53,165 nt of DNA from a virus (IMGVR_UViG_3300030118_000876:1-53165), one strand, 5' to 3'; shown: positions 1 through 49,761, counted from the first letter of the stretch. Numbers and translations: made by a program. Notes: generated from the sequence alone by a model not told the origin.

Positions 1-99
1 TCAAGTAAACTATCTAAACTATCTAAAATATATAGATAAATTCAATATACCCTTTCATGAAAGGATTTCTTGAGGAATATATGTAAAACGCGGTAGTCA
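1..99. repeat. Terminal direct repeat identical to 53067-53165; circular contig overlap
   Basis: The first 99 nt match the last 99 nt exactly; 99 is a common assembler k-mer size. Confidence 0.9.
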
Positions 100-229
100 A
101 AGATTACCAATATATTTCTAGATATTTTAGATACCTGTACACAAACCATTGAAATTGAATAGTATTTCCTATCTATTTCCAATATCTATCTACAGAAACA
201 TTACAGATAGGACTGCCCACAAATAGATA
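11..229. repeat. TATCTA/TAGATA hexamer cluster (continues from 52955-53004); candidate replication origin or protein-binding array
   Basis: Exact copies at 52955, 52964, 52999, 11, 20, 33, 119, 128, 170, 183, 187 and 224 in non-coding AT-rich DNA. Confidence 0.6.
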
Positions 230-289
230 GAACAACATGTTTCCACATGTCATGTGAAGGCGTCGCTTTCTCTGTGTACGCGAGCCAAC

Positions 290-318
290 TTGCAAAATCG
301 GGTCGCCTCGCCCAAACT
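290..318 (+). promoter_or_regulatory. Sigma70-like promoter for the early operon
   Basis: TTGCAA(290-295)-17 nt-CAAACT(313-318). Confidence 0.55.
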
Positions 319-323
319 GGGTT

Positions 324-401
324 TGTCTTTCGGGGCTGTCCTTTTACGGACTTCCTAAGAGACATTCAATCAACGCCATTGAACTAATTAACTAAGGAGG
401 T
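324..401 (+). promoter_or_regulatory. Structured 5' leader and strong SD
   Basis: TGTC...GACA-closed hairpin 324-364 with inner GTCC/GGAC; TTCAAT/ATTGAA hairpin 365-383; TAAGGAGGT 393-401. Confidence 0.55.
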
Positions 402-406
402 GTAAA

Positions 407-700
407 GTGGCAAAAATATACGAAGGTAATGTATCTATCTTTAAGAACTCTAAAGATAAGATTGTTGTAAAAGCTGATCCTACTGGTCAGTACAATGCTG
501 AGAATGTTGAAGCACTTGCTTCAAAGATGACTGAACTTGGTCGTTCTTTGAAAGCTGAAGTAAACTTCTTCATTCCAGAGACTAACTCAGACAAGCCTAT
601 CAAGGCTGTCTTGCTAGCTAATCGTTGGGGTTCCCCTTACGTAGCTTACTTACCTGAGGGTAAGACATCTACTCGTAAGCCTATTGAAAAGCTTGCTTAA
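407..700 (+). CDS. Early hypothetical protein, 97 aa, paralog of 52243-52536
   Basis: GTG start with near-perfect SD; shares IxEGNVSI, DPxG, LxAxRxGxP and terminal KLA with the 52243 protein. Confidence 0.9.
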   Translation: MAKIYEGNVSIFKNSKDKIVVKADPTGQYNAENVEALASKMTELGRSLKAEVNFFIPETNSDKPIKAVLLANRWGSPYVAYLPEGKTSTRKPIEKLA

Positions 701-708
701 TCTTAATC

Positions 709-737
709 AGGGACAGTGGTGTAATGCTACTGTCCCT
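709..737 (+). promoter_or_regulatory. Intergenic 12-bp hairpin without U-tract
   Basis: AGGGACAGTGGT-GTAAT-GCTACTGTCCCT. Confidence 0.6.
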
Positions 738-756
738 ATTCGTGTTGGAGGTGAAT

Positions 757-957
757 ATGTATTCATGTGTTGTATGTTCTGCTGAAGTCAATGACAAACG
801 TGTCAAGTTAGGTTATGATACTTGCATGCTCTGTGGTGACAAGCAGGCTAGGGAGGTTGTGCATACAGTACTACCTTTACACAAATCCAACTACATGTTG
901 GTGACCAATCGGGAGGAACTGATTGGTTTCAATACGAAGGGAGGGATAGTCAAATGA
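757..957 (+). CDS. C4 zinc-finger protein (DksA/TraR-type finger)
   Basis: CVVC-x-R-x-CMLC pattern; SD GGAGGTG before ATG 757 (start revised from 724). Confidence 0.75.
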   Translation: MYSCVVCSAEVNDKRVKLGYDTCMLCGDKQAREVVHTVLPLHKSNYMLVTNREELIGFNTKGGIVK

Positions 958-1052
958 AACTATCTGATAAACTTCTATGGATACTGTACTGTGCTATTGC
1001 GGCAGGTACAGTTTCATACTTAGACACAGTCTTTGAGTGGGGGTTATTCTAA
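954..1052 (+). CDS. Small membrane protein, 32 aa (MKLSDKLLWILYCAIAAGTVSYLDTVFEWGLF); not in ORF track
   Basis: ATGA overlap with upstream gene, TAATG overlap with downstream gene, SD GGAGG, one hydrophobic segment. Confidence 0.65.
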   Translation: MKLSDKLLWILYCAIAAGTVSYLDTVFEWGLF

Positions 1053-1240
1053 TGTCTGCTCGTAAGGTTTTGTCTGCACTGGGGGCTACAGCTTTAGTTG
1101 TAGCTTTCGGTTTTCTACTAGCGTTTGTACTTATCAACTTCATGCTTGGTTGTGAGACTTGGGATGAAAGTCTTTGGACTGAGTACAACAGCTGTATAAC
1201 CCTTGGTCACATCATCGAAGGAATAGGAGGTAAACAATGA
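1052..1240 (+). CDS. Hypothetical membrane protein
   Basis: N-terminal TM segment followed by CETW...C; coupled start at 1052. Confidence 0.75.
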   Translation: MSARKVLSALGATALVVAFGFLLAFVLINFMLGCETWDESLWTEYNSCITLGHIIEGIGGKQ

Positions 1241-1449
1241 CCAATAAGAAATCTATGAAGCTTTTCGTACTTCGGTATGGAAAAGGTGGAGATGTAGTAA
1301 AGGGGGAAGATGGCACACCCCTGTACTTCAACGACAAACAAGTTGCCAAGAACCATCGGGGAGACAACATGGTTGTCTCATATGGCCCTGACCATCGTAA
1401 ACACAAAGGAGGAATAGATGCGAGCCACTCTACTAAAACAAACAATTAA
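1237..1449 (+). CDS. Hypothetical protein
   Basis: SD GGAGGT, ATGA overlap. Confidence 0.7.
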   Translation: MTNKKSMKLFVLRYGKGGDVVKGEDGTPLYFNDKQVAKNHRGDNMVVSYGPDHRKHKGGIDASHSTKTNN

Positions 1450-2410
1450 ATCATTGTTCCCTACACAACGGACAATGGCAATCGAAGGTGCACCGGGTGG
1501 TGGTAAGACTACCATCTGTGAAGAAGTTGCCAATGAATTGAAGGTTGGTTTCATTGAGAAACACATGCCGACAATGTTGGTCGAAGACTTCGGTATCATG
1601 TATCCAAATGGTGATGATATGTTGCACTACAAACTACCAGACTGGTATCCGTCACAAGACAGAACGGATATACCTGACACTGGTATCCTATGCTTTGATG
1701 ACAGGAACCAAGCCAATGCTGACTTGCAGAAAGTCTTGGCTAACATCTGTCAAGCTAGGAATCTACATGGTAAACCACTCAAGGAAGGTTGGATGGTTGT
1801 CTCGACAGGTAACCGACAGTCTGACAGAGCAGGTGCTAATCGTGTACTGTCTCACTTGCGTAATCGTGAGACTGTGTATGAACTTGAAACACACCTTGAT
1901 GACTGGTGTTCATGGGCTATTGACCATGGAGTGAAGCCCGAAGTTGTTTCGTTCATACGTTTCAGACCTAATCTCTTGCATGACTTTGATGCTCAACGTG
2001 ACCAAAACCCTACACCACGTTCATGGGTTGAGGGTGTGTCTGACGCCATTGGTGTTGTACCAACTAACGCTGAGTATGAAACATTCAAGGGTGCTGTTGG
2101 TGAAGGTGCGGCGGCAGAATTTGTAGGTTTCGTTAAGATCTACAGGAAGCTACCGAATCCTGACAACATCATCATGAATCCTACTACAGCCGAGGTTCCT
2201 GATGACCCTGCTACGTTGTATGCCCTGTCTGGTGCTATCGCTGAACGTGCAACTGTCAACAACTTTGAGCGTGTTGTGACTTATGCCGAGCGTATGCCAC
2301 CTGAGTTCAGTGTACTGTCTGTGTCCTATGCAAGTCGTAAGAACGCAGAACTGGCTTCAACGCAAGCGTTTACGAAGTGGGCTGTTAACCATCAAGATGT
2401 CCTATTTTAA
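1418..2410 (+). CDS. AAA+ ATPase (MoxR/AAA_5-like)
   Basis: Walker A GAPGGGKT, Walker B-like ILCFDD, sensor STGNR, arginine finger LRNR, TPRSW motif. Confidence 0.85.
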   Translation: MRATLLKQTIKSLFPTQRTMAIEGAPGGGKTTICEEVANELKVGFIEKHMPTMLVEDFGIMYPNGDDMLHYKLPDWYPSQDRTDIPDTGILCFDDRNQANADLQKVLANICQARNLHGKPLKEGWMVVSTGNRQSDRAGANRVLSHLRNRETVYELETHLDDWCSWAIDHGVKPEVVSFIRFRPNLLHDFDAQRDQNPTPRSWVEGVSDAIGVVPTNAEYETFKGAVGEGAAAEFVGFVKIYRKLPNPDNIIMNPTTAEVPDDPATLYALSGAIAERATVNNFERVVTYAERMPPEFSVLSVSYASRKNAELASTQAFTKWAVNHQDVLF

Positions 2411-2421
2411 CGGAGGTAGAT

Positions 2422-3273
2422 ATGAAGTTATCGGACAAAGCACTATTGGTTCAACTGAATGTATCACAGTGGACTGCTAGGAAGTATGACAAGAGGGCTA
2501 CTGAACAGGTAGCCCAACAGAATGGTTCTGCTGTACAAGCAGGACGATACAACAAATCGTTGTTACCTATGAATGATTACCTTGATAATGTTCATAAGAA
2601 AACAACCACTATCAGAGCGAAGTACTACGCCAATACCCTACCTTGGGGTATTGAGGGTACAATGTTGTTACCATCTGCAAACTACTTGAACTTCATGACA
2701 GAGTTTAGGAAGGAGAAAGCAGATTGGCAAACACTTGTGGACAGCTTTTGGAATGAGTATTCAAGGCTGAAGCAAGATGCACAACGCTTCTTGGGTAACC
2801 TGTACAACGATGCAGACTACCCACCACTGCACGACATCCAACGTAAATTCAAGATGGACTTGGCTGTGTTCCCTGTACCATCTAACGATTTTCGTGTGCA
2901 AATATCGGATGATGAACTGTCTCGTATACAGAATGATGTTGAAGCTAGAGTACAAGATGCGGCTCAACAAGCTATGCAGGAAGCATGGCAACGTTTGTAT
3001 GACCGAGTCAAACACATGGCTGAGAAACTTGCAGACCCTAAGGCTATCTTCCGAGATACTCTGATCGAGAATACCAAGGAAGTATGTTCTGTACTTAGCC
3101 GACTTAACTTTGCTGATGACCCTAACTTGGAAGCCTTACGACAACAAGTTGAGGGAAGTCTAGCTAACAACCACCCTGAAAGTCTACGTAATGACCCTGA
3201 CTTGAGACGTGATAAAGCGGCTGAAGCCAAGGCAATCATGGACAAGATGGGTGCATTTATGGGAGGTAACTAA
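2422..3273 (+). CDS. Helical coiled-coil protein, DUF3150-like
   Basis: SD GGAGGT; largely helical; lies between the AAA+ and vWA genes; family from recall. Confidence 0.6.
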   Translation: MKLSDKALLVQLNVSQWTARKYDKRATEQVAQQNGSAVQAGRYNKSLLPMNDYLDNVHKKTTTIRAKYYANTLPWGIEGTMLLPSANYLNFMTEFRKEKADWQTLVDSFWNEYSRLKQDAQRFLGNLYNDADYPPLHDIQRKFKMDLAVFPVPSNDFRVQISDDELSRIQNDVEARVQDAAQQAMQEAWQRLYDRVKHMAEKLADPKAIFRDTLIENTKEVCSVLSRLNFADDPNLEALRQQVEGSLANNHPESLRNDPDLRRDKAAEAKAIMDKMGAFMGGN

Positions 3274-4394
3274 TGGCAGATGTTGAGAAACGAATCAGTA
3301 AAGCTAAGACTTCATTGATTCTTGAGCATCCCTTTGTTGGTAGTATTGCTTTGAATATGCCGATGAAGGTTGACAACTCTGTACCTACTGCCGCCACTAA
3401 TGGTAAGCGTGTACTGTTCAATGGAGATTTCTGCAATGGGTTGGATGATGAGGAACTTAAGTTCCTCGTCGCCCACGAATGTTTACACCCAATGTTGGAA
3501 CACAACTTCCGTAGACAAGAACGTAATCCATACAAGTGGAACAAAGCGGCTGACTATGTAATCAACAAGCTGTTGACTGATGAAGGTATTGGTAAGATGC
3601 CCGAACAAGGTCTGCTTGATGAGAATATATACCAGTCTGGTAATGGTACATCCGAGGGTATCTACGGAATACTACCCGAGGAAGATGAAGGTAATGAAGG
3701 CTATGGTGGTCAAGGTCAACCACTAGACAGCTGTGAAGATGGTGAAGGTTCACCTGCTGAAGTATCACAGCAACAAGCCGAATGGAAAGTCAAGGTAGCA
3801 CAAGCGGCTCAAGCGGCTAAGATGATGGGCAAGTTGAGTGCAGGTCTTGAACGTATCGTTGATGAAGTCTTGAAACCCAAAGTGGACTGGAGGGAAGTCT
3901 TACAGAGATTTGTTGTCAAGTGTAAGTCTGACCAACGCTCGTGGGCTAGACCCAATAGACGATTCCTTTCTCAAGGATTGTATTTACCAAGTGTATCGGG
4001 TGAATCATTGGGAGACATTGCGTTCGCTGTAGACTGTTCGGGTTCTATCGGACAAGACGAAATCAATCAGTATGCTAGTGAAATACGTACAGTTTGGGAA
4101 GATCACAGACCAACAAATATACACGTCATCTACTTTGATTCTGAAGTCTGTCACTACGATAAGTTTGACAGAGACAACGAACCAACAATCAAACCACATG
4201 GGGGTGGAGGTACTGCTTTCAGTCCTGTGTTCAAATACATGCAAGACAATTCTATTGACCCAGTTGCTTGTGTGTTTCTAACAGACCTTTGCTGTGATGA
4301 CTTTGGTGATGCACCTGATTACCCAGTTCTATGGGTGTCAACGCATGATGACAAAGCACCATTTGGTGAGGTCGTAATGATGAAGGAGGTATAA
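3273..4394 (+). CDS. Metallopeptidase plus vWA domain protein (DUF2201-like)
   Basis: TAATNG, HExxH (AHECLH), MIDAS DCSGS, GGGGT, FLTD. Confidence 0.85.
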   Translation: MADVEKRISKAKTSLILEHPFVGSIALNMPMKVDNSVPTAATNGKRVLFNGDFCNGLDDEELKFLVAHECLHPMLEHNFRRQERNPYKWNKAADYVINKLLTDEGIGKMPEQGLLDENIYQSGNGTSEGIYGILPEEDEGNEGYGGQGQPLDSCEDGEGSPAEVSQQQAEWKVKVAQAAQAAKMMGKLSAGLERIVDEVLKPKVDWREVLQRFVVKCKSDQRSWARPNRRFLSQGLYLPSVSGESLGDIAFAVDCSGSIGQDEINQYASEIRTVWEDHRPTNIHVIYFDSEVCHYDKFDRDNEPTIKPHGGGGTAFSPVFKYMQDNSIDPVACVFLTDLCCDDFGDAPDYPVLWVSTHDDKAPFGEVVMMKEV

Positions 4395-4588
4395 TGGGAC
4401 AAGTTAAGCAACTGCTTATAGAAGCAGAATCATTATTGGTTACATGCCTAGATGATTGGGGCATGACCAATGACCAAGCGTTTGCAAAGATACGCAAACA
4501 GTTAGGTAGCATGGCTGAAGACCATGTACGTCAACTAGTAAACAAATGGAATAAGGAGGATAAAAATGGCAACAGTACGATTCAGTGA
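4394..4588 (+). CDS. Hypothetical protein
   Basis: Coupled TAATG start, SD AAGGAGGT. Confidence 0.75.
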   Translation: MGQVKQLLIEAESLLVTCLDDWGMTNDQAFAKIRKQLGSMAEDHVRQLVNKWNKEDKNGNSTIQ

Positions 4589-5246
4589 TGCGTTGAAAGA
4601 TACCATCCGTACCAATGCAAAAAACATGTTCGAAGCGAACATCAAGAAAACAGAAGCAGACTATCCATCAACATGGGCAGATAAGTTTTACAATTCATTC
4701 TTTCCTGCTGATGTGATTGTTAAGTTCAATGTACTACCAGACTACGCATTGGACAAGAAAGAACGAGTCGACTTTCGTGGGTTTCATAATGCACCCGAAG
4801 ATGTATGGCAGACAGGTGAATACAAACATGAGACATGGAAGTTGGTAAGTGAGATACCACTAAACTTCAGTACACCTAAGCCTTGGCCTCATAAATTTAA
4901 CAAGGAGGATACAGGGTTTGATGATCAGTGGCGTAGTGGTTCTTGTGACTACAACGATAGTAGATGGGACTGGTTGAAAGCCGAGTTCAAGGAATACAAT
5001 CGTAAAGTCTTTGAGATACGAAGCAAACAAGAGAAGTTCTTGGAAGGTGTTAACAGGATTATGGATACATATTCTACGTTAGCCCCTGCACTCAAAGCAT
5101 GGCAACCATTGTGGGATTTGTTGGATGACAATACCAAGGAACGACACAAGAAGGTAGTCGAACGTAAGAAGTCGAGTGATACAGACTTAGGTGTAAACCT
5201 AAACGACATGACTGCGGCTGTAACATTTAATAAACTAACGAGGTAA
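4566..5246 (+). CDS. Hypothetical protein, possibly Nmad5-like
   Basis: SD AAGGAGG; N-terminal VRFSDALKDTI and C-terminal STLAPALKAW resemble the Nmad5 pattern (recall). Confidence 0.55.
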   Translation: MATVRFSDALKDTIRTNAKNMFEANIKKTEADYPSTWADKFYNSFFPADVIVKFNVLPDYALDKKERVDFRGFHNAPEDVWQTGEYKHETWKLVSEIPLNFSTPKPWPHKFNKEDTGFDDQWRSGSCDYNDSRWDWLKAEFKEYNRKVFEIRSKQEKFLEGVNRIMDTYSTLAPALKAWQPLWDLLDDNTKERHKKVVERKKSSDTDLGVNLNDMTAAVTFNKLTR

Positions 5247-5248
5247 TA

Positions 5249-6307
5249 ATGACAGAGATAATATATCCAAATGGGCTGACTGAAGGCGAAATACCACCTA
5301 TCAAGTACACCAACTGGTGGGAAAGCGACAGGTCACTCAACAGCTACGAACAAATGGTAGCTTTTTTCAATCGGGCAAGAGATAAAACTAAGGGTAAGCC
5401 TGTAACCCAATGGTCTAAGCTGACTATGGAAGGTGATGTAGTGTACATTAATCTTCTCAACTATGGCACAGACAAGCTAGCCAAGATAACACCTGACAAC
5501 ATCATTGAGTTTATTGCTGAGCCAATGACTATTTGGCAACAGAGTCAATCAATGGTTGGTGCTTTCCATAGGTGGTATCCGTTTACATTCATGAGACATC
5601 GTAAGGGTTTGTATCGTGCCCAACATACTAAGGTCATGAGTAAGATAGCAGATATAAAAGTAAAAGAAAAACGTGAATCAATGTTGGCTATGACTAAGCA
5701 AGAAGTCGATGATGCTAAAGCCGCAGAAAAGTACTATGGCTATTGGAATTATGGCTATCAAGTACACACTGAAATCATGAAGGAGTCCCCATCATACTTC
5801 AAGGGTCTGCGTTTTCACATGCTTACCGGCGAGTGTCTCAATCAAAGACCTGACGACAAGTTTGTAGAAGATCCCGAGAAGCGTAAAGAGTGGCGTAAAA
5901 TGCTGACTAAATTCAAGCGAGGTATGAAAGCTAGAATCAAAGTCCATGCTCTTGATGGTATTGTCAACGAGGTATGGGACAACAAACAGCTAGGTGGTCA
6001 GCACCAATGGAAACAACCCGATTGGTCTGCTGAAGAATGGACTACCCTACTACAGAAGTGTATTCGTGACTGTGACTATCCTAGAGAATTACTGATCGGT
6101 TTGGTTCAGACATCACATAGTGGATACTATATGTCTAGTAGACCAACTGCTGATGACCTTAGAAAAACACTTGATAGGGTACTCAACGATATGAGTATCG
6201 AACTTCGTAGACGATTCGGTGTCTTTGAGAAAGAAGGACATGATGAGAAAAAGCAGGACAAGTACAGAGGATACAATTCTTCTATAACTATCGAAGGTGT
6301 CCTATGA
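5249..6307 (+). CDS. Hypothetical protein, 352 aa
   Basis: Long ORF within the operon with SD GAGGT. Confidence 0.8.
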   Translation: MTEIIYPNGLTEGEIPPIKYTNWWESDRSLNSYEQMVAFFNRARDKTKGKPVTQWSKLTMEGDVVYINLLNYGTDKLAKITPDNIIEFIAEPMTIWQQSQSMVGAFHRWYPFTFMRHRKGLYRAQHTKVMSKIADIKVKEKRESMLAMTKQEVDDAKAAEKYYGYWNYGYQVHTEIMKESPSYFKGLRFHMLTGECLNQRPDDKFVEDPEKRKEWRKMLTKFKRGMKARIKVHALDGIVNEVWDNKQLGGQHQWKQPDWSAEEWTTLLQKCIRDCDYPRELLIGLVQTSHSGYYMSSRPTADDLRKTLDRVLNDMSIELRRRFGVFEKEGHDEKKQDKYRGYNSSITIEGVL

Positions 6308-6768
6308 CAGTCGTAGTTTGGGATGGAATGAATCTAGCTACTGATAGACAAGCTAATGATGGCTCTCTTAAATGGGAGTCATCAAAGGCTTGGTACGTAT
6401 CTAGTAATGGTGAAGTCAGCATTGTTTCGGGTGTTGGGTTATTGTCACATATTGTAACACTACGTGAGTGGTATAAGAGTGGGGCTTTACCCGACAGGTA
6501 TCCGGCAGAGATACAACATAACACAGCTCAACTTATTGTCATAAGACAGGATGGGTTGTGGGTCTATGATGGTACTGCTTACCCCGAACATAAGGGCTTC
6601 AATGTGTGTGCCTTTGGACATGGTAGAGATTTCGCTTTCGGTGCATTAGCTATGGGTGCTGATGCTCGTAAGGCTGTGGAAATAGCTTGTGAATATTCTT
6701 TACAATGTGGTAAAGGTGTGGAAATATATAGTTTACAAAGAGGTAAAGATAATGTCGAAGAAGTATGA
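6304..6768 (+). CDS. Ntn-hydrolase (proteasome beta/HslV-like) fold protein
   Basis: Thr at residue 2, LATDRQ, SSK, AFGHG..AFGALAMGA..AVEIA pattern. Confidence 0.65.
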   Translation: MTVVVWDGMNLATDRQANDGSLKWESSKAWYVSSNGEVSIVSGVGLLSHIVTLREWYKSGALPDRYPAEIQHNTAQLIVIRQDGLWVYDGTAYPEHKGFNVCAFGHGRDFAFGALAMGADARKAVEIACEYSLQCGKGVEIYSLQRGKDNVEEV

Positions 6769-7207
6769 AAAGGTAATGAAATACCTTATAGATAACCCTA
6801 CTGCTAAAGCTAGTGTTGTAGCCAAGGCTTGTAAGTGTAGTGTCAAGTATGTCTACAATCTTAAATCAAATGTTGGAACACCAAAGGAAGTCTTTGAGAA
6901 AGAAGCTAGAGATAAACAGAGGAAGGCACTGGTCAATAGAACTAGTGTACTAATGACAGCTGATGACATGGTTAGTAAAGCTAGGCAACAAGACCACGGA
7001 AGTTTTCTTAACAATGCTACCATGACAGCACAGTATTGGAATACTCATTTAGGTTTGATTGATTTTATAAAACCTAGAGATGTTCCTATCATGCTAGCTT
7101 TGCTGAAGATTGCAAGGATTCATGAGAACCCATCACACATAGACAACTATGTTGACACATGTGGGTACTCTGCACTTGCAGCGGAAATGTCGGAAGACAG
7201 GGAGTAG
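6752..7207 (+). CDS. N-terminal HTH-like domain plus DUF6378-like domain
   Basis: RQQDHGS...WN...DVPIMLALLKIAR...DNYVDTCGYSAL; start revised to ATG 6752 (SD GAGGT). Confidence 0.7.
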   Translation: MSKKYEKVMKYLIDNPTAKASVVAKACKCSVKYVYNLKSNVGTPKEVFEKEARDKQRKALVNRTSVLMTADDMVSKARQQDHGSFLNNATMTAQYWNTHLGLIDFIKPRDVPIMLALLKIARIHENPSHIDNYVDTCGYSALAAEMSEDRE

Positions 7208-7209
7208 TT

Positions 7210-9087
7210 ATGGATATAGTCACCATTGATTTCGAAACATATTACGACAGAGAGTATTCATTGTCTAAGATGACAACTGAAGCTTATGTTCGTGACGGCA
7301 GGTTTGAGGTTATTGGTGTAGGTATCAAAGTTAATGACCACCCTACTGATTGGTATAGTGGTAACAATGTGGGCAAGTTTCTTAACTCGTTGGATTATTC
7401 CGACAAGGCGATACTTGCTCATAACTGCGTGTTTGATGGGGCTATTTTGTCATGGCTATATAATATTAAGCCGAGGTTTTGGCTTGACACATTATCTATG
7501 GCAAGACCCTTTCACAACTCAACAGTAGGTGGCTCATTAAAAGCATTAGTACACCACTACAAACTAGGTGCAAAAGGTGATGAAGTAATTAATGCGTTAG
7601 GTAAAAGACGTAAGGACTTCACACCCGAAGAACTAGATAAGTACGCTAGCTACTGTGTTAATGATGTAGACCTCACCTATAAACTATTCCAAAAACTAAA
7701 GGCAGAAAACTTTCCTGCGTCCGAGTTAATGATCATTGACCAAACACTACGGATGTATACAGAGCCTACTATTATATTAGATACCGATGTGTTGACTCAG
7801 CATCTCGAGAAAGTAAAGGCAGACAAACAGAAACTTATTGATGATTTATCACTCAAAGGATTGAGTCAGGAAAAAGTCAAAAAGGCTTTGATGTCTAATC
7901 AGATATTCGCAAAGCTATTGCAGACAGTCGGTGTCGAACCCCCAATGAAAACTAGCTTACGTACAGGCAAGGAAACGTATGCGTTTGCTAAGACAGACAA
8001 AGCATTCACCAACTTGTTGGAGCATCCTAGTCCTAAAGTCCAGAATCTGGTGGCGGCAAGACTCGGCACGAAATCCACGATTGAGGAGACTCGGACAGAA
8101 AACCTAATAAAAGTAGCTGAGCGAGGTCGCTTACCCATCATGCTTAATTATTATGGAGCGCACACAGGCAGGTTTAGTGGTGGCGATAAGCTGAACTTAC
8201 AGAACCTACCTAGGAATGGTGCTATCCGTAGGTCACTATCCGTACCCGAAGACCATGTGTTGATTGCTTGTGATTCGTCACAGATAGAAGCAAGAATGGT
8301 TGCCTACATTGCAGGTCAAGATGATTTGGTTGAATCATTTAGGCAAGGTCGTGATGTATATAGTGAGTTTGCTAGTGAAGTTTATGGCAAGAAAGTGACG
8401 AAGGATGACAAGGTTGAACGATTTGTAGGTAAGACTTGTATTCTTGGTTTAGGTTATGGCATGGGTGCAAAGAAGTTTAGGGCAACACTTGCTCTAGGAC
8501 AAGGTGGTATATCTGTTGATGTCGATGAGTATGAGGCTCAGAGGATTGTCAATTTATATAGGCAGAAGAACCACAAGATCGCATCGCTTTGGAATAGATG
8601 TGGTCATGCTCTATCAGAGATAGTGGCAGGTAGGTCGGGTCAAATATCAGACTTAGTACACTATGATAGTAAGGGGATTATCTTACCCAATAAACTACGC
8701 ATTATATATCCTGCATTGCGTAATGGCTCAGATGGATATGAGTATATCAATGACGCTAGAACTTTCCGTAAGTTAGCACACAAGCGAGTGATGACTGGCG
8801 AACAAGTTACGATTGATTGGACTCGTATCTATGGGGGCAAGGTAACAGAGAACGTTGTTCAAGCGTTGGCTCGTATAGTTGTATCAGAACAGATGGCATC
8901 TATTGGTCAGTCTTATCATGTAGTCTTTCAAGTACATGACGAGGTGATCATATGTGCCCCGGCAGCAGATGAGACACACGCACGACAACTTGTTGAGAGA
9001 AGAATGTCTACACCCCCCAGCTGGGCAAAGAATCTGCCAGTCGCTTGTGAGTCGGGCGTAGGCTATAATTATGGAGATGCAAAATGA
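7210..9087 (+). CDS. polA: Family A DNA polymerase with 3'-5' exonuclease
   Basis: Exo motifs IDFET, HNCVFD, YCVND; HTGRFS; motif A DSSQIEAR; motif B RFVGKTCILGLGYG; motif C QVHDE; start revised to 7210. Confidence 0.95.
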   Translation: MDIVTIDFETYYDREYSLSKMTTEAYVRDGRFEVIGVGIKVNDHPTDWYSGNNVGKFLNSLDYSDKAILAHNCVFDGAILSWLYNIKPRFWLDTLSMARPFHNSTVGGSLKALVHHYKLGAKGDEVINALGKRRKDFTPEELDKYASYCVNDVDLTYKLFQKLKAENFPASELMIIDQTLRMYTEPTIILDTDVLTQHLEKVKADKQKLIDDLSLKGLSQEKVKKALMSNQIFAKLLQTVGVEPPMKTSLRTGKETYAFAKTDKAFTNLLEHPSPKVQNLVAARLGTKSTIEETRTENLIKVAERGRLPIMLNYYGAHTGRFSGGDKLNLQNLPRNGAIRRSLSVPEDHVLIACDSSQIEARMVAYIAGQDDLVESFRQGRDVYSEFASEVYGKKVTKDDKVERFVGKTCILGLGYGMGAKKFRATLALGQGGISVDVDEYEAQRIVNLYRQKNHKIASLWNRCGHALSEIVAGRSGQISDLVHYDSKGIILPNKLRIIYPALRNGSDGYEYINDARTFRKLAHKRVMTGEQVTIDWTRIYGGKVTENVVQALARIVVSEQMASIGQSYHVVFQVHDEVIICAPAADETHARQLVERRMSTPPSWAKNLPVACESGVGYNYGDAK

Positions 9088-9293: not shown

Positions 9294-9354
9294 TGTATTG
9301 TTTATATATGCGTGGGTGTACACCGCCTACGCATCATACTGCTATGGAGGTTCG

Positions 9355-10014: not shown

Positions 10015-10043
10015 CTTGACAATACTGTAAAGATAATTATATT

Positions 10044-10343
10044 ATGTCTAGTACACCGGAAGGTAAAATAAAACGTAAACTTGACAAGATGTTAAAGTCT
10101 GAAAACATATGGTATTACAGCCCACAAGCAGGGCCATTTGGTAGAGCAGGGATTCCCGACAGAGTTGCCATCGTTGATGGTAGGTTTGTAGGAATAGAGT
10201 GTAAGGCAGATAGGACAAAGAAACCCACTGCCTTACAGCTAAGCTGTATGAAACAGATCGAAGACGCAGGTGGTAAATGTTTTGTTGTATTTGATGATGA
10301 GACAATAGAAGAAGTGAGGACATATATAAATGCTAGTCGTTGA
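10044..10343 (+). CDS. VRR-NUC domain nuclease
   Basis: PEGK, GIPD, GIECKA, PTALQ motifs. Confidence 0.9.
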   Translation: MSSTPEGKIKRKLDKMLKSENIWYYSPQAGPFGRAGIPDRVAIVDGRFVGIECKADRTKKPTALQLSCMKQIEDAGGKCFVVFDDETIEEVRTYINASR

Positions 10344-11880
10344 ACAAGCAAAGGCATTAGCCTTAAACTTGACACACCCAAACAAGGTGTTGGAAACGAT
10401 TCCTACCGCCCGCATGCTGAAGTATGACGGAGCAGAACTTGTTGTCACACCTCACCGTAATGATGAAGTCAAGGTACTACGCAACCTAGGTATCAAAGCA
10501 CCTGCACCTATACTGCACTATTATGAATGGGCAGGTAGGTTTGAACCATATGAACACCAAAAGATGACATCTGCTTTTCTTACTATGAATAAAAAGGCAC
10601 TGGTACTTAACGAGATTGGTACTGGTAAAACACAATCTGCTTTATGGGCGGCTGACTACCTAATGAATATAGGCGAGGTAAAGCGAGTCCTTATTATATC
10701 CCCACTGTCTACCCTTGAACGAGTATGGGGTGACAGTATCTTTATGAATTTTCCCCACAGACAATCAGTTACTTTACATGGTACAAGCGCACGAAGAAAG
10801 AAGCTACTTCAAACCGAGTGTGACTTTTACATAATCAATCACGATGGTTTCAATATTATATCCGAAGAAGCACAAGAAAGGTTTGACTTAGTTATTGTTG
10901 ATGAAGCCGCTGTGTTTCGTAACCCATCTACAAACAGATACAAAGTGATCAGGAAGTTCTTAGCCAAGAATACAGAAACACGTTTATGGTTGATGACAGG
11001 TACACCTACCCCTAACGCACCAACGGACGCATGGGCATTAGCAAAGCTAGTAGAAAGTATACATCTTAAACAAACATATACTGCTTTCCGTGAGTCCGTG
11101 ATGATGAAGGTTGGGCAATGGAAGTGGATACCAAGACCCGAATCAATAGAAGTTGTAAAGCATATGCTTCACCCTGCTGTAAGATATACAAGGGATGAAT
11201 GCTTTGACCTACCCGATACAGTTTTCCAAACAAGAAAGGTGGAACTAACCACCGAACAAAAACAACATTACCAAAAGATGCTACGCCACTTTGTTACAGA
11301 AATGGCTGAGGAAGGCACAATCACTGCTGTGAACGAAGCTGTAAAGATGCAGAAACTTGTTCAGATAGCGTGTGGTGTAGTCTATGGCGATGATGGTCGT
11401 CATATAGAACTCGACTGTAAATCAAGAGTTAATCTTGTAAAGGAGGTGATAGAGGAAGTAGGTAATAAGGTAATAGTTTTCGTACCACTGACAGGTACGC
11501 TACGGATGTTAGAGAAAGAACTTTCTCAACATTGGAGTGTTGGCGTTGTTAACGGAGAAGTATCAGCTACAAAACGTAACGAGATATTTCACAACTTTCA
11601 GCACACTAAAGAACCTCATGTTCTAATCGCTCACCCTGCGACTATGGCTCATGGGCTAACTTTGACAGCCGCATCTACGGTTGTCTGGTATGGGCCAGTA
11701 ACAAGCAACGAACAATATGTTCAGGCGAATGGTAGAATAGAGAGGATAGGTAAAAAACATGTGTCGAACATAGTCCATATAGAGGCTACTGACCTTGAAT
11801 ATAGAATGTATGAACGACTCAAAAACAAACAAAAACTACAAGGTCTTCTGTTAGATCTTATACAAAACGAATCGAGGTGA
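10330..11880 (+). CDS. SNF2-like superfamily 2 helicase
   Basis: EIGTGKT, VDEA, MTGTP, HGLTL, QANGRIERIG. Confidence 0.9.
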   Translation: MLVVEQAKALALNLTHPNKVLETIPTARMLKYDGAELVVTPHRNDEVKVLRNLGIKAPAPILHYYEWAGRFEPYEHQKMTSAFLTMNKKALVLNEIGTGKTQSALWAADYLMNIGEVKRVLIISPLSTLERVWGDSIFMNFPHRQSVTLHGTSARRKKLLQTECDFYIINHDGFNIISEEAQERFDLVIVDEAAVFRNPSTNRYKVIRKFLAKNTETRLWLMTGTPTPNAPTDAWALAKLVESIHLKQTYTAFRESVMMKVGQWKWIPRPESIEVVKHMLHPAVRYTRDECFDLPDTVFQTRKVELTTEQKQHYQKMLRHFVTEMAEEGTITAVNEAVKMQKLVQIACGVVYGDDGRHIELDCKSRVNLVKEVIEEVGNKVIVFVPLTGTLRMLEKELSQHWSVGVVNGEVSATKRNEIFHNFQHTKEPHVLIAHPATMAHGLTLTAASTVVWYGPVTSNEQYVQANGRIERIGKKHVSNIVHIEATDLEYRMYERLKNKQKLQGLLLDLIQNESR

Positions 11881-11884
11881 TGAT

Positions 11885-12289: not shown

Positions 12290-12981
12290 TGATAGGTTCT
12301 AAGCTATCTATTAAAGACTCTCGTTTTCATATTGTCACTGAGGCGGGCGATGCTCAACTAACCACAACAAATCTCAACGTGGTTGTAGTTGGTGCAAATC
12401 CGAAGCTATCAAAGGTGTGGTATGAGTCCGATTGGTCACCCGATAGGGAATCATCTACACCCGATTGCTTCTCTCTTGATGGTATTAAACCACATGAGAA
12501 CAGTGGTCTACCACAGAATAATATGTGCGTTACCTGTCCGCAGAACGCATGGGGTTCTAGGGTAACACCACAAGGGCGTAAGGTGAAAGCATGTGCTGAT
12601 CAGAAACGTTTGGCACTAGTAATAGCAGATAAGACTGACGGTGAAATCTTTCTGCTTCAAGTAACACCTGCATCTCTAAGCAGTCTCAACGCATATCAAA
12701 AGACTTTGATGACTAGGGGTATAGCACCTGACATAGCTATTACCACTATATCTTTTGATGAGACTGTATCATTCCCAAAACTGAAGTTTTCCTTTGGTGG
12801 CTTCAATGACAGTAGGGCACAAGCCAATGTCGATAAGTTATTGGGGTCTGACGAGGTGAGGGTAATCACCGGAGAACTTGCTGTAGCAAGCATTAAAACA
12901 CCTGTTGCTTCTGATTATGGTTTTACAGAAGAAGCAGGATTCACAACTAACGATGAACTAGGAGGTTCAAACAATGAATAA
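12289..12981 (+). CDS. Cys-containing putative ssDNA-binding/annealing protein
   Basis: PDCFSLDGIKP, CVTCPQNAWGS, KAC; located next to the SSB gene. Confidence 0.55.
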   Translation: MIGSKLSIKDSRFHIVTEAGDAQLTTTNLNVVVVGANPKLSKVWYESDWSPDRESSTPDCFSLDGIKPHENSGLPQNNMCVTCPQNAWGSRVTPQGRKVKACADQKRLALVIADKTDGEIFLLQVTPASLSSLNAYQKTLMTRGIAPDIAITTISFDETVSFPKLKFSFGGFNDSRAQANVDKLLGSDEVRVITGELAVASIKTPVASDYGFTEEAGFTTNDELGGSNNE

Positions 12982-13699
12982 AACTTTTACAACTGAGAAA
13001 GGCGTTGCCTACTATCCTTATATTAGTGCGCCTGATACTAAATTTGATGAGCAAGGACACTACAAAGTTAATCTTTGCTTACCAAAAGAAGATGCTAAAC
13101 CTGTTATCGAACTGATTAACAGTGAGATACTTAATGGTATCAAAGCATTGAAGGAGCAGAAGCCTAATAAAAATATTAAGCAAGCACCTGTTCCATACCA
13201 CGATGAACTAGACGATGAAACCGGTGAGCCAACTGGTAACGTGGTTATTAAGTTTAAGTCTAAGGCCGCATATAAACCTGCTGTGTTTGACAGTAAAGGT
13301 AATATGATGACCAACTCAAACATCTATGGTGGATCTGTATTGAAGGTAAACGGTTCGTGTGCATTCTATGATTCACCTGCTGTTGGTGTAGGTGTATCTC
13401 TTAGACTGAGAGCAGTGCAAGTAATCCAATATGTTGAAGGCGCACAAGGCGCAGGTAAGTTTGGATTTGGTGAAGAAGCAGGGTTTACTGTGTCAGAAGA
13501 AGTTGAGACAAGTGAGCCTGTTACTACGGCCCCCGTCGTTGAGGAGGTAGTCAAAGAGGAGCCAATAGTAGAAGCACCTGCACCTGCCCCGAAACCAAAA
13601 GTAGTCGAAGAACCCAAGCCTGCACCTGCTGTATCAAGCCAAGCAGATGACCTTGCGGCTGAGATTGCTAAATTGGTAGGGGATGTAAAGGATGACTAA
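12974..13699 (+). CDS. ssDNA-binding protein, T7 gp2.5-like, with long Pro/Ala tail
   Basis: PDTKF..G.YKV, FKSKA, IYGGS, GVSLRLRAVQVI. Confidence 0.85.
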   Translation: MNKTFTTEKGVAYYPYISAPDTKFDEQGHYKVNLCLPKEDAKPVIELINSEILNGIKALKEQKPNKNIKQAPVPYHDELDDETGEPTGNVVIKFKSKAAYKPAVFDSKGNMMTNSNIYGGSVLKVNGSCAFYDSPAVGVGVSLRLRAVQVIQYVEGAQGAGKFGFGEEAGFTVSEEVETSEPVTTAPVVEEVVKEEPIVEAPAPAPKPKVVEEPKPAPAVSSQADDLAAEIAKLVGDVKDD

Positions 13700-13976
13700 T
13701 ACACCCCCTCTTGACTTCAAGAAGGTGGAAGCCCTGAGGAAACATATGCTGTTAACCACTGGCAATATGGCAGAATTACTCGGTGTGTCTCGTATGACTT
13801 ATTACGGATGGGTAAAAGGTAAGCCTGTCCGTAAGAAGAACGAAGATAAAGTCAGGGATATTCTACGCAAATTGCTATCAATTCTAAACGATGGATGGCC
13901 TCAACCTGAGGTTATTGCATTGGAACAGAAGATGCGATTTGAAAGGCTTCTTGAGATTTATAACAAAAACGAGTAA
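13692..13976 (+). CDS. XRE-family HTH regulator
   Basis: LRKHMLLTTGNMAELLGVSRMTYYGWVKG. Confidence 0.85.
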   Translation: MTNTPPLDFKKVEALRKHMLLTTGNMAELLGVSRMTYYGWVKGKPVRKKNEDKVRDILRKLLSILNDGWPQPEVIALEQKMRFERLLEIYNKNE

Positions 13977-14015
13977 ACTGGAGAAGGGGATAGGGAGACT
14001 TATCCCCACCAGTTT
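13975..14015 (+). promoter_or_regulatory. Extended hairpin upstream of primase; possible weak terminator or attenuator
   Basis: AAACTGG...GGGGATAGG-GAGA-CTTATCCCC...CCAGTTT. Confidence 0.55.
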
Positions 14016-14031
14016 AAGAAGGTAGGGCAAG

Positions 14032-16887
14032 ATGAATACGTTGGAGTTTCTTCAGCGAGTCCTGCCGAGTGAAGGATACTATGTAACTACAGTGATTAAC
14101 ACTGATGGTAGAAGACAAGGCTTCTTCAAGACGGTAGATGAACTCGCAACTGTATGTGAGAGATTAGATAAGACAGATAATAATACTTACTTTGCTATCT
14201 CTGCGTACAAACAAAAAGGCAATAGACGACAAGATAACGTCAGAGCCACAAAAGTAGTAGCCATAGATGTAGACTGTGGTGAAGGTAAACCCTTTCCATC
14301 ATGGAAAGAAGGATTAGTAGAGTTAGGTAAATTCGTAAGCGACATGGGTTTACCAAAACCTATGGTAATTCATTCGGGTAATGGATTACATGTATACTGG
14401 GTTCTCAAAGAAGAACTAGCACCCGAAGATTGGAAACCTTTAGCTGAAGCTATGAAGCAAGCGGCTATCGCAAAAGAGTTTCATATTGATGCAGGGCTAA
14501 CAGCTAACAGTGCATTAGTATTAAGACCAGTCGGCACACGCAATCCAAAGAATGGTAACACAGTAAAGTTGTTGGTGGATGCTGAGCCTGTAAAAAGTTC
14601 AGCTCTCACGCAAAGTTTATCTTATTACTTCCGAGCAGCGCCTGCAGCTGCTGAAGGTCACACTCGTGAAAACTCGTTGTTACAAAACTTAGCAGTCAAA
14701 CAAGACTTCCCACCTGCTGTAGGTTCAGTAGTAGCAAGTAAGTGTAAACAGATTGAATGGGCTATCAACCACCAAGACGAAGTTGATGAGCCACTATGGT
14801 ATGACCTTATAGGTGTAGCCGCTTTCTGTACTGACCCTGACAAGACAGCATTAGAGTGGAGCAAAGGTCATCCTAAGTTTGATGAACATGCTACCTTACA
14901 GAAACTTACTCACTGGAAAGAGTCTGCGAGTGGCCCGGCAACATGTGCGAAGTTTGAAATAGACAGACCGAACGGATGCCGAGGTTGTAAATATAAAGGT
15001 AAGATCGGATCACCTGCAAGACTTGGTGTACAATACCAAGAGATAGACGTACCCACTGAAGCACCTGATAAGGTTGCAAACACAGTACCAATACCTAAAC
15101 CATTTAAGAGAACTAAAGATGGCATAAAGGTGACGATAGATGATACTGACGTTGATGTGTGTAAGTTTGATATTTATCCTGTGGGTTATGGAATGGATGA
15201 ATCGCTAGGGTATGAAACAGTTAGATACCATTGGAATAGACCCCATATGGGTTGGCAAGAACTGGTTCTAAGGCAAGCATACCTTACTGATGGCAATCGT
15301 GAATTTGCAACAGCTATAGCAGATCAAGGGATTGTATTATATAACAAAAGACAAACGGAGTATTTTCAACTTATGTTAAGAACATACATGGATGAGTTGA
15401 GGCAAATCCGTAAGATGACTAACCTCTACTCGACTATGGGTTGGAAAGAAAAGAATACGGCATTTGTCTTAGGTAACACTCTTATCAGAAAAGATGATAA
15501 AGGTGTAGCAACAGAAGAACAGATTAACCTTGCATCTGTAGTAAACAGACAAGGTTCAGAACTATATAATCCTAAGGGTGATATAGAACAGTGGACAGCA
15601 CTAACTAATGTGCTTGAGAAAGGTGGGCTGTATGCTCACATGTTCGTACTTGGTGTAGGATTTTCAGCACCACTGTATAATTTTACAGGTCTCAAAGGAC
15701 TTACTGTATCTCTATATGGGCCAACAGGTGGTGGTAAAACACTAGCACAGTACTGGGCGCAATCTATATATGGTAATCCTGACAAGCTACATTTTGCGGC
15801 TAAGTATACGCAGAACAGTTTGTTTACTAGATTAGGTACATACGCAAACCTACCACTTACAATAGACGAAGTAACTATGATGAACGATAAGGAAGTCGGT
15901 GACTTCTGTTATTGGGTATCACAGGGCAGAGATAAAGCTAGGCTGAATCGTAATGCTGAAGAACGTGATGCAAAGACATGGTCAACACCTGTCATAGTAT
16001 CTACCAACAAGTCTCTACAAAGTAAGCTGATAGCGTCCGGCCTAGATACAGACGCACAGATGGCTAGGTTACTAGAACTGACAGTGCCACCTGCCGCTAT
16101 GTTTACTAGAAACTCTGAGATTGGTAGAAAGATCTACGAAGCAATACATACCAACTATGGATATGTTGGCAGGTCTTATATCAAACGACTGCTCGAAATG
16201 GGCGAAGAAGGGATACAAGCTAGTATTGCTGAGGCGTCGAACTCATTCCGTAAAAGATACAAAGCTAAGTTCTCAGGTGAAGAAAGATACTGGGAGCAAT
16301 CTATAATCTTAGCAGATCTAGCTATGCAGTTTGCTAACGACTGGGGTATGATTAAGTTTGACCACTGCAAAGCTACCGAGTGGGTATTATCTCAGATTGG
16401 TGCTATCCGTAGAACAGTACAAGAGAACCAAGTAGATTCATTTGATCTACTTGCAGAGTATATGGCTGACTGCGCTGACGCACAGGTAACTGTAATGCAC
16501 ACAGTAGGGCAGAAACCACAGCCTGATTTTGGTCGTATGCCTAGAAGCGATATAAGAGTTCGTCTTGATGTATTCCGTAAATCTGCGGCTGATCCGTTTG
16601 ACAAGGGTACAATGATGGTTGACCGTACTCACTTCCGTAAATGGTTGTCTGTACGCGGAGCTGACTACAAGACATTCAAACAAGAACTTACTGAGGAGAG
16701 TGCACTGGCTACACCTAAGTCAGAAAAAGCATCTCTTGGTAAGGATACACCAACCAAACTGGCACAAACGTATGTGATTGGGTTTAACCTAACTCACCCT
16801 AGATTCCAAAGCCTGCTAGAAAATGCAGATGTAGCGGCTGATGATCTTGCGTATGGACAGTTACAAGTCGTAAAGAATGATACTTGA
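14032..16887 (+). CDS. Primase/helicase: AEP-like primase, Cys cluster, DUF927 and P-loop domain
   Basis: AIDVD, SGNGLHVYW, VLRPVGT, C..F...C.GC, GWKE, GPTGGGKT, IDE. Confidence 0.85.
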   Translation: MNTLEFLQRVLPSEGYYVTTVINTDGRRQGFFKTVDELATVCERLDKTDNNTYFAISAYKQKGNRRQDNVRATKVVAIDVDCGEGKPFPSWKEGLVELGKFVSDMGLPKPMVIHSGNGLHVYWVLKEELAPEDWKPLAEAMKQAAIAKEFHIDAGLTANSALVLRPVGTRNPKNGNTVKLLVDAEPVKSSALTQSLSYYFRAAPAAAEGHTRENSLLQNLAVKQDFPPAVGSVVASKCKQIEWAINHQDEVDEPLWYDLIGVAAFCTDPDKTALEWSKGHPKFDEHATLQKLTHWKESASGPATCAKFEIDRPNGCRGCKYKGKIGSPARLGVQYQEIDVPTEAPDKVANTVPIPKPFKRTKDGIKVTIDDTDVDVCKFDIYPVGYGMDESLGYETVRYHWNRPHMGWQELVLRQAYLTDGNREFATAIADQGIVLYNKRQTEYFQLMLRTYMDELRQIRKMTNLYSTMGWKEKNTAFVLGNTLIRKDDKGVATEEQINLASVVNRQGSELYNPKGDIEQWTALTNVLEKGGLYAHMFVLGVGFSAPLYNFTGLKGLTVSLYGPTGGGKTLAQYWAQSIYGNPDKLHFAAKYTQNSLFTRLGTYANLPLTIDEVTMMNDKEVGDFCYWVSQGRDKARLNRNAEERDAKTWSTPVIVSTNKSLQSKLIASGLDTDAQMARLLELTVPPAAMFTRNSEIGRKIYEAIHTNYGYVGRSYIKRLLEMGEEGIQASIAEASNSFRKRYKAKFSGEERYWEQSIILADLAMQFANDWGMIKFDHCKATEWVLSQIGAIRRTVQENQVDSFDLLAEYMADCADAQVTVMHTVGQKPQPDFGRMPRSDIRVRLDVFRKSAADPFDKGTMMVDRTHFRKWLSVRGADYKTFKQELTEESALATPKSEKASLGKDTPTKLAQTYVIGFNLTHPRFQSLLENADVAADDLAYGQLQVVKNDT

Positions 16888-17314
16888 GACAGCCACTGCT
16901 CTGATCTGTATGGCTCACGCTATATATTTCGAAGCTAGGTCTGAGTCTACAGCGGCTCAGATCGCAGTGGGTCATGTAATCCTTAACAGAGTAGAAGATC
17001 CTAGATTCCCTGACAACGTGTGTGAAGTTGTTACAGAAGGTGTAAGGTATAACACTGGCCAGATGAAAAGGGATAAGTGTCAGTTTAGTTTTTACTGCGA
17101 TGGTAAACCTGAAAGAGTCTATGAACACTTAGCATATATGAGAGCAGAAGCCTTATCATTTATAATTTTAGATAGCCATATGACATATGATATAACTGAT
17201 GGAGCTACGCACTATCATGCTACATACGTCAATCCTGTATGGGCAAATAGATTTACTAGGACTACCTGTATAGATAGCCACTGTTTCTATAGAGCAGATA
17301 CTAAAGATCGCTAG
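16877..17314 (+). CDS. Cell wall hydrolase (SleB/Hydrolase_2 family)
   Basis: CMAHAIYFEARSE, VILNRV, CQFSFYCDG, GATHYHATYV.P.W, HCFY. Confidence 0.9.
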   Translation: MILETATALICMAHAIYFEARSESTAAQIAVGHVILNRVEDPRFPDNVCEVVTEGVRYNTGQMKRDKCQFSFYCDGKPERVYEHLAYMRAEALSFIILDSHMTYDITDGATHYHATYVNPVWANRFTRTTCIDSHCFYRADTKDR

Positions 17315-41426: not shown

Positions 41427-41434
41427 AATCTACC

Positions 41435-49614: not shown

Positions 49615-49652
49615 AAAAATCAGCCTCCTACAAACAAGTATATATTAGTAGA

Positions 49653-49681: not shown

Positions 49682-49682
49682 T

Positions 49683-49716: not shown

Positions 49717-49761
49717 AACTAAGAAGGTAAAAACTTTGTCGAGATGACAATAGGGATTCTA

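Follow-up and report, generated by a model that had tools for sequence, protein, structure and literature searches.

The 53,165-base IMG/VR record IMGVR_UViG_3300030118_000876 (hereafter the window, or G000 in comparisons) holds the whole genome of a podovirus-like marine phage that is uncultured and has two arms in divergent orientation. The short motif GCWGC is strongly avoided in the replication arm and occurs at about the expected number in the structural arm, and we consider here the extent, the conservation and the possible cause of this asymmetry. The last 99 bases of the window (53067-53165) repeat its first 99 (1-99), an overlap produced by circular assembly that gives no evidence of a physical end.

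Gene calling followed a simple rule of the longest open reading frame (ORF), and the arms were defined by strand blocks. The replication arm lies on the + strand and runs from 51942 to 53066 and on from 1 to 17314, which amounts to 18.4 kb or about 35% of the genome. It is called "early" here, a label that we took from the preliminary description of this DNA and that does not imply expression timing. The start of this arm, which spans the assembly junction (51942-53165), comprises the divergent intergenic region, small ORFs, a hairpin and a non-coding stretch, and contains no GCWGC. In its main part (1-17314), the zone of GCWGC depletion, all genes are on the + strand and family matches point to an AAA ATPase (1418-2410), a DUF2201/VWA protein (3273-4394), DNA polymerase A (7159-9087), an exonuclease (9298-10014), a helicase (10330-11880), a gp2.5-like single-stranded DNA-binding protein (SSB; 12974-13699), a primase-helicase (14032-16887) and a cell-wall hydrolase (16877-17314). 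All genes of the structural or "late" arm (17315-51941) are on the - strand, and include those of a giant PLxRFG protein of 2734 amino acids (17301-25505), an internal virion protein (30336-32708) and the portal (46647-48692), both assigned by family matches, and the large terminase (49762-51180), which gave a weak Terminase_3 match.

Only the C-terminal 500 residues of the giant protein could be matched, to the PLxRFG domain NF032893 (E = 3e-49), and neither a Pfam domain nor a PDB sequence match or solved relative was found for it. Among the 25 of its 52 homologue matches that were listed, one is labelled as DarB-like antirestriction protein and two as DNA methylase or methyltransferase. Homologues in other phage records are also labelled as internal virion polymerase or as structural, all of these being untested labels. 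An identity of the giant protein as RNA polymerase or as DarB homologue was rejected, as there is no Pfam or PDB sequence match.

The nearest cultured phages, at 25-38% amino acid identity, are Rhizobium phage RHph_TM3_14A, Pseudomonas phages KPP25/phiR18 and roseophages and pelagiphages of the HMO-2011 type, while no near-identical phage record was found. Marine metagenome runs of 12 studies hold contigs that share sequence with positions 48000-53165 of the window, and no tRNA or Rfam match was found within it. A polymerase search of IMG/VR gave 61 loci, from which ten whole or long records (G001-G010) were compared with G000. These relatives are phylogenetically related and many of the loci are close kin, so that counts across them are not independent.

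Avoidance of GCWGC and of other short motifs in the early arm

A whole-genome average hides the signal, since GCWGC looks over-represented over the full window, with 137 sites versus 89 in dinucleotide shuffles. These sites are divided between the arms as five early and 132 late, while base composition predicts 20.2 and 35, respectively, and a third-order Markov model 27.4 and 123. Exactly five sites occur between 51869 and 18366 across the junction (at 7178, 8962, 14635, 14644 and 14647), none of them in 51869-53165 or in 1-7177, and the late-arm sites nearest to either boundary are at 51864 and 18367. The five early-arm coordinates and the last late site at 51864 had been listed in the preliminary description, and our recount reproduced them exactly.

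The deficit was also assessed with 1000 within-gene synonymous-codon shuffles, as the preliminary description had proposed. For the early arm these gave an expectation of 28.5 +/- 3.1 sites (minimum 17) versus six observed in coding sequence, one site being counted twice because two ORFs overlap there (z = -7.2), and for the late arm 118.2 +/- 4.5 versus 132 observed. The high density in the late arm arises because its protein is rich in Ala-Ala written with GCT/GCA codons, and the anomaly is therefore the early arm. In the early arm the first codon of an Ala-Ala pair is GCA or GCT in 5 of 29 pairs versus 328 of 407 other Ala codons (p = 4e-12), and in the late arm in 115 of 127 pairs versus 847 of 983 other Ala codons (not significant). 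The preliminary description had noticed by eye that Ala-Ala is repeatedly written as GCG-GCT, GCG-GCA or GCC-GCA, and the example that it quoted, caagcggctcaagcggct, sits at 3801. In this codon- and dipeptide-controlled comparison, of the kind that the preliminary description had named as able to refute the observation, the two arms differ clearly in first-codon usage (p = 9e-15). The avoidance of GCWGC in the early arm is real and far beyond chance.

The avoidance is motif-specific, strand-symmetric and independent of the reading frame. In the eight genomes that share it (see below), pooled observed over expected counts in the early arm for frames 0, 1 and 2 were 10/72, 2/9.5 and 1/28 for GCAGC, and 5/82, 0/4.5 and 2/25 for GCTGC. 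As the depletion holds in all frames and in both orientations, it points to recognition of double-stranded DNA and not of codon pairs or RNA. Dinucleotide biases between the arms are small (CG 0.83 vs 0.94, GC 0.96 vs 1.02) and too weak to account for the depletion, and similar words (GCAGA, GCAGT, GCAGG and GCSGC) show no depletion. The deficit is limited to one contiguous sub-genomic segment with a normal frequency elsewhere, and thus does not constitute genome-wide avoidance.

Of the retained early-arm sites, a GCAGC at 7178-7182 lies where ORF 6689-7207 overlaps with the polymerase gene, and another at 8962-8966 encodes Ala-Ala at codon 602 of the polymerase gene. The other three (GCAGC, GCAGC and GCTGC; 14635-14651) fall in the A-A-P-A-A-A stretch of the primase gene. 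The homologous P/S-A-A-A position of the primase keeps GCTGCAGC in G001, G008 and G009, and GCTGC in G010. An element of the form GCTGCAGC/GCAGCTGC is present at the same primase position in five of the eight genomes, and carries a CTGCAG that is rare in the early arm. As synonymous escape is possible there, the primase element may be a functional DNA element.

When all strand-collapsed 4- to 6-mers were compared with codon shuffles in an unbiased manner, the scan returned GCWGC (6/29 observed over expected early, 132/117 late) along with several other motifs. In the window, early-arm depletion was seen for CCAGC (2/20 early, 78/78 late), CCAGA (9/31, 78/82), CTGGA (5/26, 58/70), AGCTC (3/25, 84/80), CTGCAG (1/6, 31/24), CGCG (2/14, 15/19) and CCGG (8/15, 54/42). 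With G000-G002 pooled, the early and late ratios of observed to expected were 0.38 and 1.22 for CCGG, 0.46 and 1.11 for GGCC, 0.38 and 0.93 for GCGC, and 0.14 and 0.56 for CGCG. GATC (0.44 and 0.76) was partially depleted, and TGCA, CATG, CTAG, GTAC, ATAT and TATA had ratios near 1 in both arms. The non-palindromic motifs were depleted in both orientations. The initial focus on GCWGC has therefore to be widened, as at least ten more short motifs are depleted just in the early arm.

A different set of motifs is missing from the whole genome. Both CCWGG (about 42 expected) and GGWCC (about 36 expected) have no occurrence at all, neither arm contains GAGCTC or GGTACC, and there is a single GAATTC. 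There are thus two tiers of avoidance, with some motifs avoided genome-wide and others in the early arm only. As to the enzymes, we take GCWGC to be a target of the TseI/ApeKI type and GCAGC one of the BbvI type. Besides, in all genomes both arms have fewer A-runs and fewer words with AATT than the codon shuffles (AATT in the window 34/95 early and 146/252 late).

Conservation, turnover and limits of the depleted zone

The comparison with related genomes suggested in the preliminary description showed that the asymmetry is shared by eight of the 11 whole or long genomes (G000-G004 and G008-G010), in which the Markov ratio of observed to expected GCWGC is 0.04-0.18 in the early arm and 0.74-1.07 in the late arm. 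The other three differ from these and from each other: G005 avoids GCWGC in both arms (0/43 early, 12/106 late), G006 shows no avoidance (94/67 early, 206/173 late), and in G007 the motif is mildly low in both arms. Eight of the 12 GCWGC sites remaining in G005 (L076-L078) are found in one late gene of 624 amino acids (oriented 41070-42944), which suggests a recently acquired module. On the level of the polymerase loci, 42 of the 61 could be tested (at least eight Ala-Ala pairs in + strand genes), and 30 of these were depleted at p < 0.001. The 12 that were not depleted include a group with 81% polymerase identity (L007, L011-L013 and L015) and a group with a GC content of 54% (L043, L047, L049, L051, L053 and L062).

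The arm-specific character extends well beyond GCWGC. Between 619 and 647 4- and 5-mers per genome have an expectation of at least 10 in both arms, and the numbers depleted only in the early arm of the eight asymmetric genomes are 12, 10, 18, 1, 7, 9, 5 and 4, of words that partly overlap and that, with an expectation as low as 10, may include a few noise hits in each genome. The corresponding numbers are 1 and 0 in G006 and G007, which have no GCWGC arm asymmetry, and words depleted only in the late arm number zero in all 11 genomes. The motif sets differ by clade, with CCAGC depleted in six genomes, CCAGA/CTGGA in three, and the depletion of CCGG and GATC being strongest in G008/G009. Seven of the ten marine relatives have no or almost no CCWGG in either arm, while in G004, G008 and G009 its depletion is mainly one of the early arm. 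Conservation of the asymmetry together with a turnover of the motifs is what changing host restriction repertoires are expected to produce.

The preliminary description had also raised the possibility that each arm stems from a lineage with a host of its own. Median protein identities of G000 to G001, G002, G010, G008, G009, G003 and G004 are 76, 69, 74, 69, 69, 58 and 57% for the early arm, and 79, 75, 70, 65, 67, 49 and 46% for the late arm, and G005-G007 follow the same trend. Among the G000 proteins, none has its best hit in the opposite arm in any of the ten relatives. As the arms diverge in step and without cross-arm best hits, they share one history, which speaks against an origin from two lineages. 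At 57-76% protein identity, synonymous sites are probably saturated, and we infer from these divergences that selection keeps up the depletion, which is not simply inherited.

The limits of the depleted zone differ at its two ends. On the divergent side, late GCWGC sites come as close to the first late start codon as 78 bp in G000 and G002 and 176-969 bp elsewhere, while on the early side of this boundary no GCWGC occurs for at least 7.5 kb. On the convergent side, the first GCWGC is found 1.0-2.6 kb inside the giant gene, apart from one site at +309 in G001. In the first kilobase of the giant gene as counted from this convergent side, G003, G004, G008, G009 and G010 have no site versus 2.0-5.8 expected from within-gene shuffles (P = 0.000-0.043 over the five genomes, P <= 0.013 in four), and the depletion in these five overruns by 0.6-2.6 kb into the 3' end of this late gene. 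In G000 itself the 3' end of the giant gene (17315-18366, - strand) is also without GCWGC and is uninformative, as the shuffles expect 0.1 sites. A change-point fit per genome to the arm-specific motifs placed the switch at -0.9 to +2.1 kb, with support intervals that exclude zero in four of the eight genomes (G003, G004, G008 and G009); as the motifs were picked for early-arm depletion, the fitted ratios are biased, the position less so. The depleted zone is thus positional rather than purely a gene class.

The depletion is also weakly graded within the arm. With six genomes pooled, the 6 kb next to the divergent end contain no GCWGC where 50 would be expected, and the rest of the arm 16 versus 117 expected, and CTGCAG and GATC show a similar gradient. 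This gradient from the divergent end is a weak signal of polarity.

We also considered whether the phages methylate their own DNA. No C5 methyltransferase (PF00145) was found in G000, G005, G006, G007 and G011, and no N4/N6 methyltransferase (PF01555) in G000, G001, G005, G006 and G007, and self-methylation by these families is thus unlikely. Regarding the host, the loci L093-L095 (74-75% portal identity) are found in metagenome-assembled genome bins labelled as actinobacterium, Micrococcales and Gammaproteobacteria, and since these labels are inconsistent, no host was assigned. GCWGC methylation has been described in environmental Chloroflexi bins (bioRxiv 10.1101/380360), which has no bearing on the host of this phage.

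The divergent region and the assembly junction

The divergent intergenic region (51942-52170) contains sigma-70-like promoter matches facing both ways, one on the - strand (51975-51948, 11/12 positions) and one on the + strand (52144-52172, 10/12 positions), the number of matches not being above that in shuffles. At about 51984-52075 there is a non-coding block that five of the six aligned genomes share (G000, G002, G010, G003 and G004), and that consists in order of AAACTTTACAC, GGTTTACT and a G-run/C-run hairpin at 52036-52072. This hairpin is no more stable than shuffles (z = -1.3). The conserved block could be a promoter, an operator or a terminus-related element.

ORF 52171-52536 (+ strand), the first of the early arm, encodes a basic protein of 121 amino acids and is a paralogue of ORF 407-700 (+ strand), a second copy of this small basic early protein with 97 amino acids and an 'EGNVSI' motif that is kept in relatives, several of which have two copies. 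A further small ORF was called at 52588-52785 on the + strand. The small early ORFs gave no Pfam, PHROG or NCBIfam match. The AlphaFold model of the ORF 407-700 product had a mean pLDDT (model confidence score) of 62 and no Foldseek matches at E <= 0.001. An assignment of the small basic protein to DUF736, a sub-threshold lead from a protein atlas (score 0.89), was dropped as Pfam did not confirm it. Directly after the first two small early ORFs there is a strong hairpin resembling an intrinsic terminator (52794-52823; 13-bp stem and T-run), followed by about 450 bp of AT-rich non-coding DNA that contains the assembly junction. In G002 (L067-L069), a record classed as 'linear', the first and last 1.5 kb both match positions 25946-26122 of the window, and this genome probably closes into a circle through an imperfect overlap.

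Possible staged entry and alternative explanations

Short words that are many, mostly palindromic, strand-symmetric and turning over among relatives, and that some lineages have lost genome-wide, carry the signature of selection by restriction-type nucleases. From first-entering DNA it is known that such selection can fall mainly on one contiguous part of the genome, here about a third. Based on this signature and on the position of the depleted zone, we consider the avoidance of restriction sites in a leading region, combined with staged entry of the DNA, as the best reading, and judge it to have somewhat better than even chances of being correct. In such a scheme, sequence-specific nucleases of the host (of the restriction-modification type) would select against their targets in the replication arm only. 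The genome would enter polarly and in stages from the divergent end, with the + arm first, perhaps pulled in by host RNA polymerase starting at the early sigma-70-like match (52144-52172), in the way that the E. coli polymerase pulls in the early region of T7. Transcription that continues untranslated beyond 17314 would stop after one or two kilobases, and we propose that the depletion overruns the gene boundary because of such read-through, which would extend 0.6-2.6 kb from the last + gene. The late promoter match (51975-51948) would then be in the last DNA to enter. As the first-entering DNA would be naked before any phage protein is made, it would have to be free of sites. An early product would subsequently neutralise the nucleases or shield the DNA, allowing the structural arm to keep its sites, and the motifs avoided genome-wide (CCWGG, GGWCC, GAGCTC and GGTACC) might be targets outside this early protection.

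Related strategies are known from other phages. The first-step-transfer (FST) DNA of phage T5 comprises about 8% of its genome. Restriction systems of Types I, II and III act on T5 and BF23 only if the FST DNA contains their sites, and this DNA in BF23, a siphovirus, lies within terminal repeats of about 9.7 kb that are followed by a long, repeat-rich non-coding region (PMC10644984). Sites in T5/BF23 matter only in the leading segment and are tolerated elsewhere, presumably because early products protect the DNA that enters later (PMC10644984, PMC12455610), and the same may apply to the phages described here. In contrast to T5/BF23, the zone here contains the entire replication module and takes up about 35% of a podovirus-like genome of 53 kb, and unlike in BF23 it ends at a gene overlap, without a non-coding region. 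Murciavirus (Autographiviridae) escapes the Type I system Mme2I with a motif that is missing only from its first-injected region, for which its authors propose an early inhibitor (PMC12455610). The two cases are alike in that a motif is missing from one region and present elsewhere. On the other hand, Murciavirus is T7-like with co-oriented genes, a single bipartite Type I motif and experimental proof (PMC12455610), whereas the phages considered here have many short Type II-like motifs, divergent arms and statistical evidence.

With these precedents from T5/BF23 and Murciavirus, the suggestion in the preliminary description that only the first-entering arm is exposed to a defence becomes the best-supported of its explanations, although nucleases as the selective agent, the polarity, the staging and the anti-defence product are parts that we infer, whereas the sequences themselves show the depletion, its action at the level of DNA, its extent, its conservation and its turnover. 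Classical avoidance of restriction sites is reportedly genome-wide (Rusinov et al. 2018). The absence of CCWGG, GGWCC, GAGCTC and GGTACC throughout the genome resembles that pattern, from which GCWGC and the other arm-specific motifs depart in that two thirds of the genome contain them as often as expected. Phage N4 enters its host stepwise and in a transcription-dependent manner, and has its early and replication genes in one direction, its late structural genes in the opposite one, and the gene of a giant virion protein in the late region. The opposed arms and the giant late gene of the window resemble this layout, while the genome is smaller than that of N4 and no homologue of its virion RNA polymerase or of N4 RNAPII was detected.

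Several observations weigh against staged entry of this kind. Family and domain searches found no known anti-restriction protein and no phage RNA polymerase. The late arm is transcribed opposite to the proposed direction of entry, so that its uptake would need another motor. The terminal repeats of three records labelled 'DTR' measure 99, 127 and 127 bp. These are presumably default k-mer sizes of the assembler, and the records are therefore circular assemblies whose repeats give no evidence of physical ends. The contig ends of linear relatives map to unrelated places, typing of the terminase found no solved or informative relative and matched only a broad PHROG and, weakly, Terminase_3, and in the literature nothing was found on the termini of KPP25-like and HMO-2011-type phages. 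Headful packaging with full circular permutation leaves no fixed leading region (PMC12455610). The avoidance in RHph_TM3_14A, the closest cultured phage with the same two-arm layout, is strong, genome-wide and without clear arm asymmetry (CCWGG 2/71 early and 0/98 late; GAATC and GACTC absent from both arms). The overrun of the boundary is untestable or unsupported in G000 and G002 (0.1 sites expected), the gradient is missing for CCAGC, AGCTC and CCGG, and the early arm retains five GCWGC sites, three of them at a conserved position.

An explanation that does not require staged entry is that the whole genome enters at once, and that cuts are fatal only in the replication arm until the products of this arm act. 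These products, such as nuclease inhibitors, the gp2.5-like annealing protein and the exonuclease, would prevent or repair later breaks. This would need no fixed genome ends, it agrees with the gp2.5-like SSB/annealing protein and the exonuclease encoded in the arm, and the depleted zone largely coincides with one direction of transcription. However, the 132 late GCWGC sites would imply many simultaneous cuts that have to be repaired in the correct order, and the overrun of 0.6-2.6 kb into a late structural gene, seen in four to five of the eight genomes, is not predicted. We regard this explanation as unlikely, though worth considering.

Protection in cis is less probable still, and we give it little credence. 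Here, a co-injected virion protein (e.g., the 2734-residue PLxRFG protein) or the packaging itself would shield the structural arm and leave the replication arm bare. The PLxRFG domain match of the giant protein and the DarB-like and methylase or methyltransferase labels of three of its listed homologues point in this direction, but the protein has no Pfam domain or solved relative, the labels elsewhere are untested, and there is no reason why shielding should stop at the arm boundary. Of slightly lower probability is a cause within the phage itself, in which the motifs would be used on one arm by a phage function (late regulation, a packaging signal or a phage nuclease) and excluded from the other. 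The retention of GCTGCAGC at the homologous primase position in several relatives does indicate that some sites may be functional. Against this, the late-arm counts match the codon-shuffle expectation without enrichment, ten or more unrelated motifs are affected in sets that vary among close relatives, and the avoidance of GCWGC covers the entire genome in one relative and is missing in another.

A mosaic origin of the arms from lineages with different hosts is highly improbable. All that speaks for it is that the arms differ in composition for these motifs, and against it the orthologues diverge in step over the same range in which eight genomes keep the asymmetry. Just as improbable is an origin without any defence, through codon-pair or translational preference or an arm-specific mutational bias, for which it can be said that most potential sites are Ala-Ala codon pairs and that CpG is slightly lower in early arms, but which is at odds with the depletion in all three frames and both orientations, with ratios of 0.04-0.2 that far exceed dinucleotide effects, and with the undepleted neighbouring words.

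Returning to leading-region avoidance with staged entry, a more specific version can be put forward tentatively, which is possible but has the odds against it. The footprint might be a map, drawn from sequence only, of a T5-like FST segment in a widespread lineage of uncultured marine podoviruses, where host transcription would pull in about a third of the genome up to a Rho-type limit of read-through, and one of the conserved early ORFans might have a broad anti-restriction function. Candidates in that case would be, e.g., the duplicated small basic 'EGNVSI' proteins, with a coverage of at least five to ten Type II specificities that does not extend to CCWGG/GGWCC.

Positional avoidance of restriction sites has been shown experimentally in few phages, namely T5 relatives and Murciavirus (2025), and our literature search, with supplements outside its scope, found no paper describing the pattern in this phage group. 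The phages discussed here, an entire group that is abundant in the sea, offer a statistical instance that is very clean and both conserved and turning over within the group, and in which the depleted zone is much larger than in T5 relatives and Murciavirus and the avoidance is two-tiered. Testable predictions follow for the genome ends, the order of entry and a broad anti-restriction function. Overall, sliding scans of observed over expected motif counts may allow infection mechanics to be read from metagenomic phage genomes and, if the footprint is indeed a map of an FST segment as in the more specific version above, scans for sub-genomic avoidance could show the polarity of entry in phages without any culture and lead to new genes for anti-defence functions.

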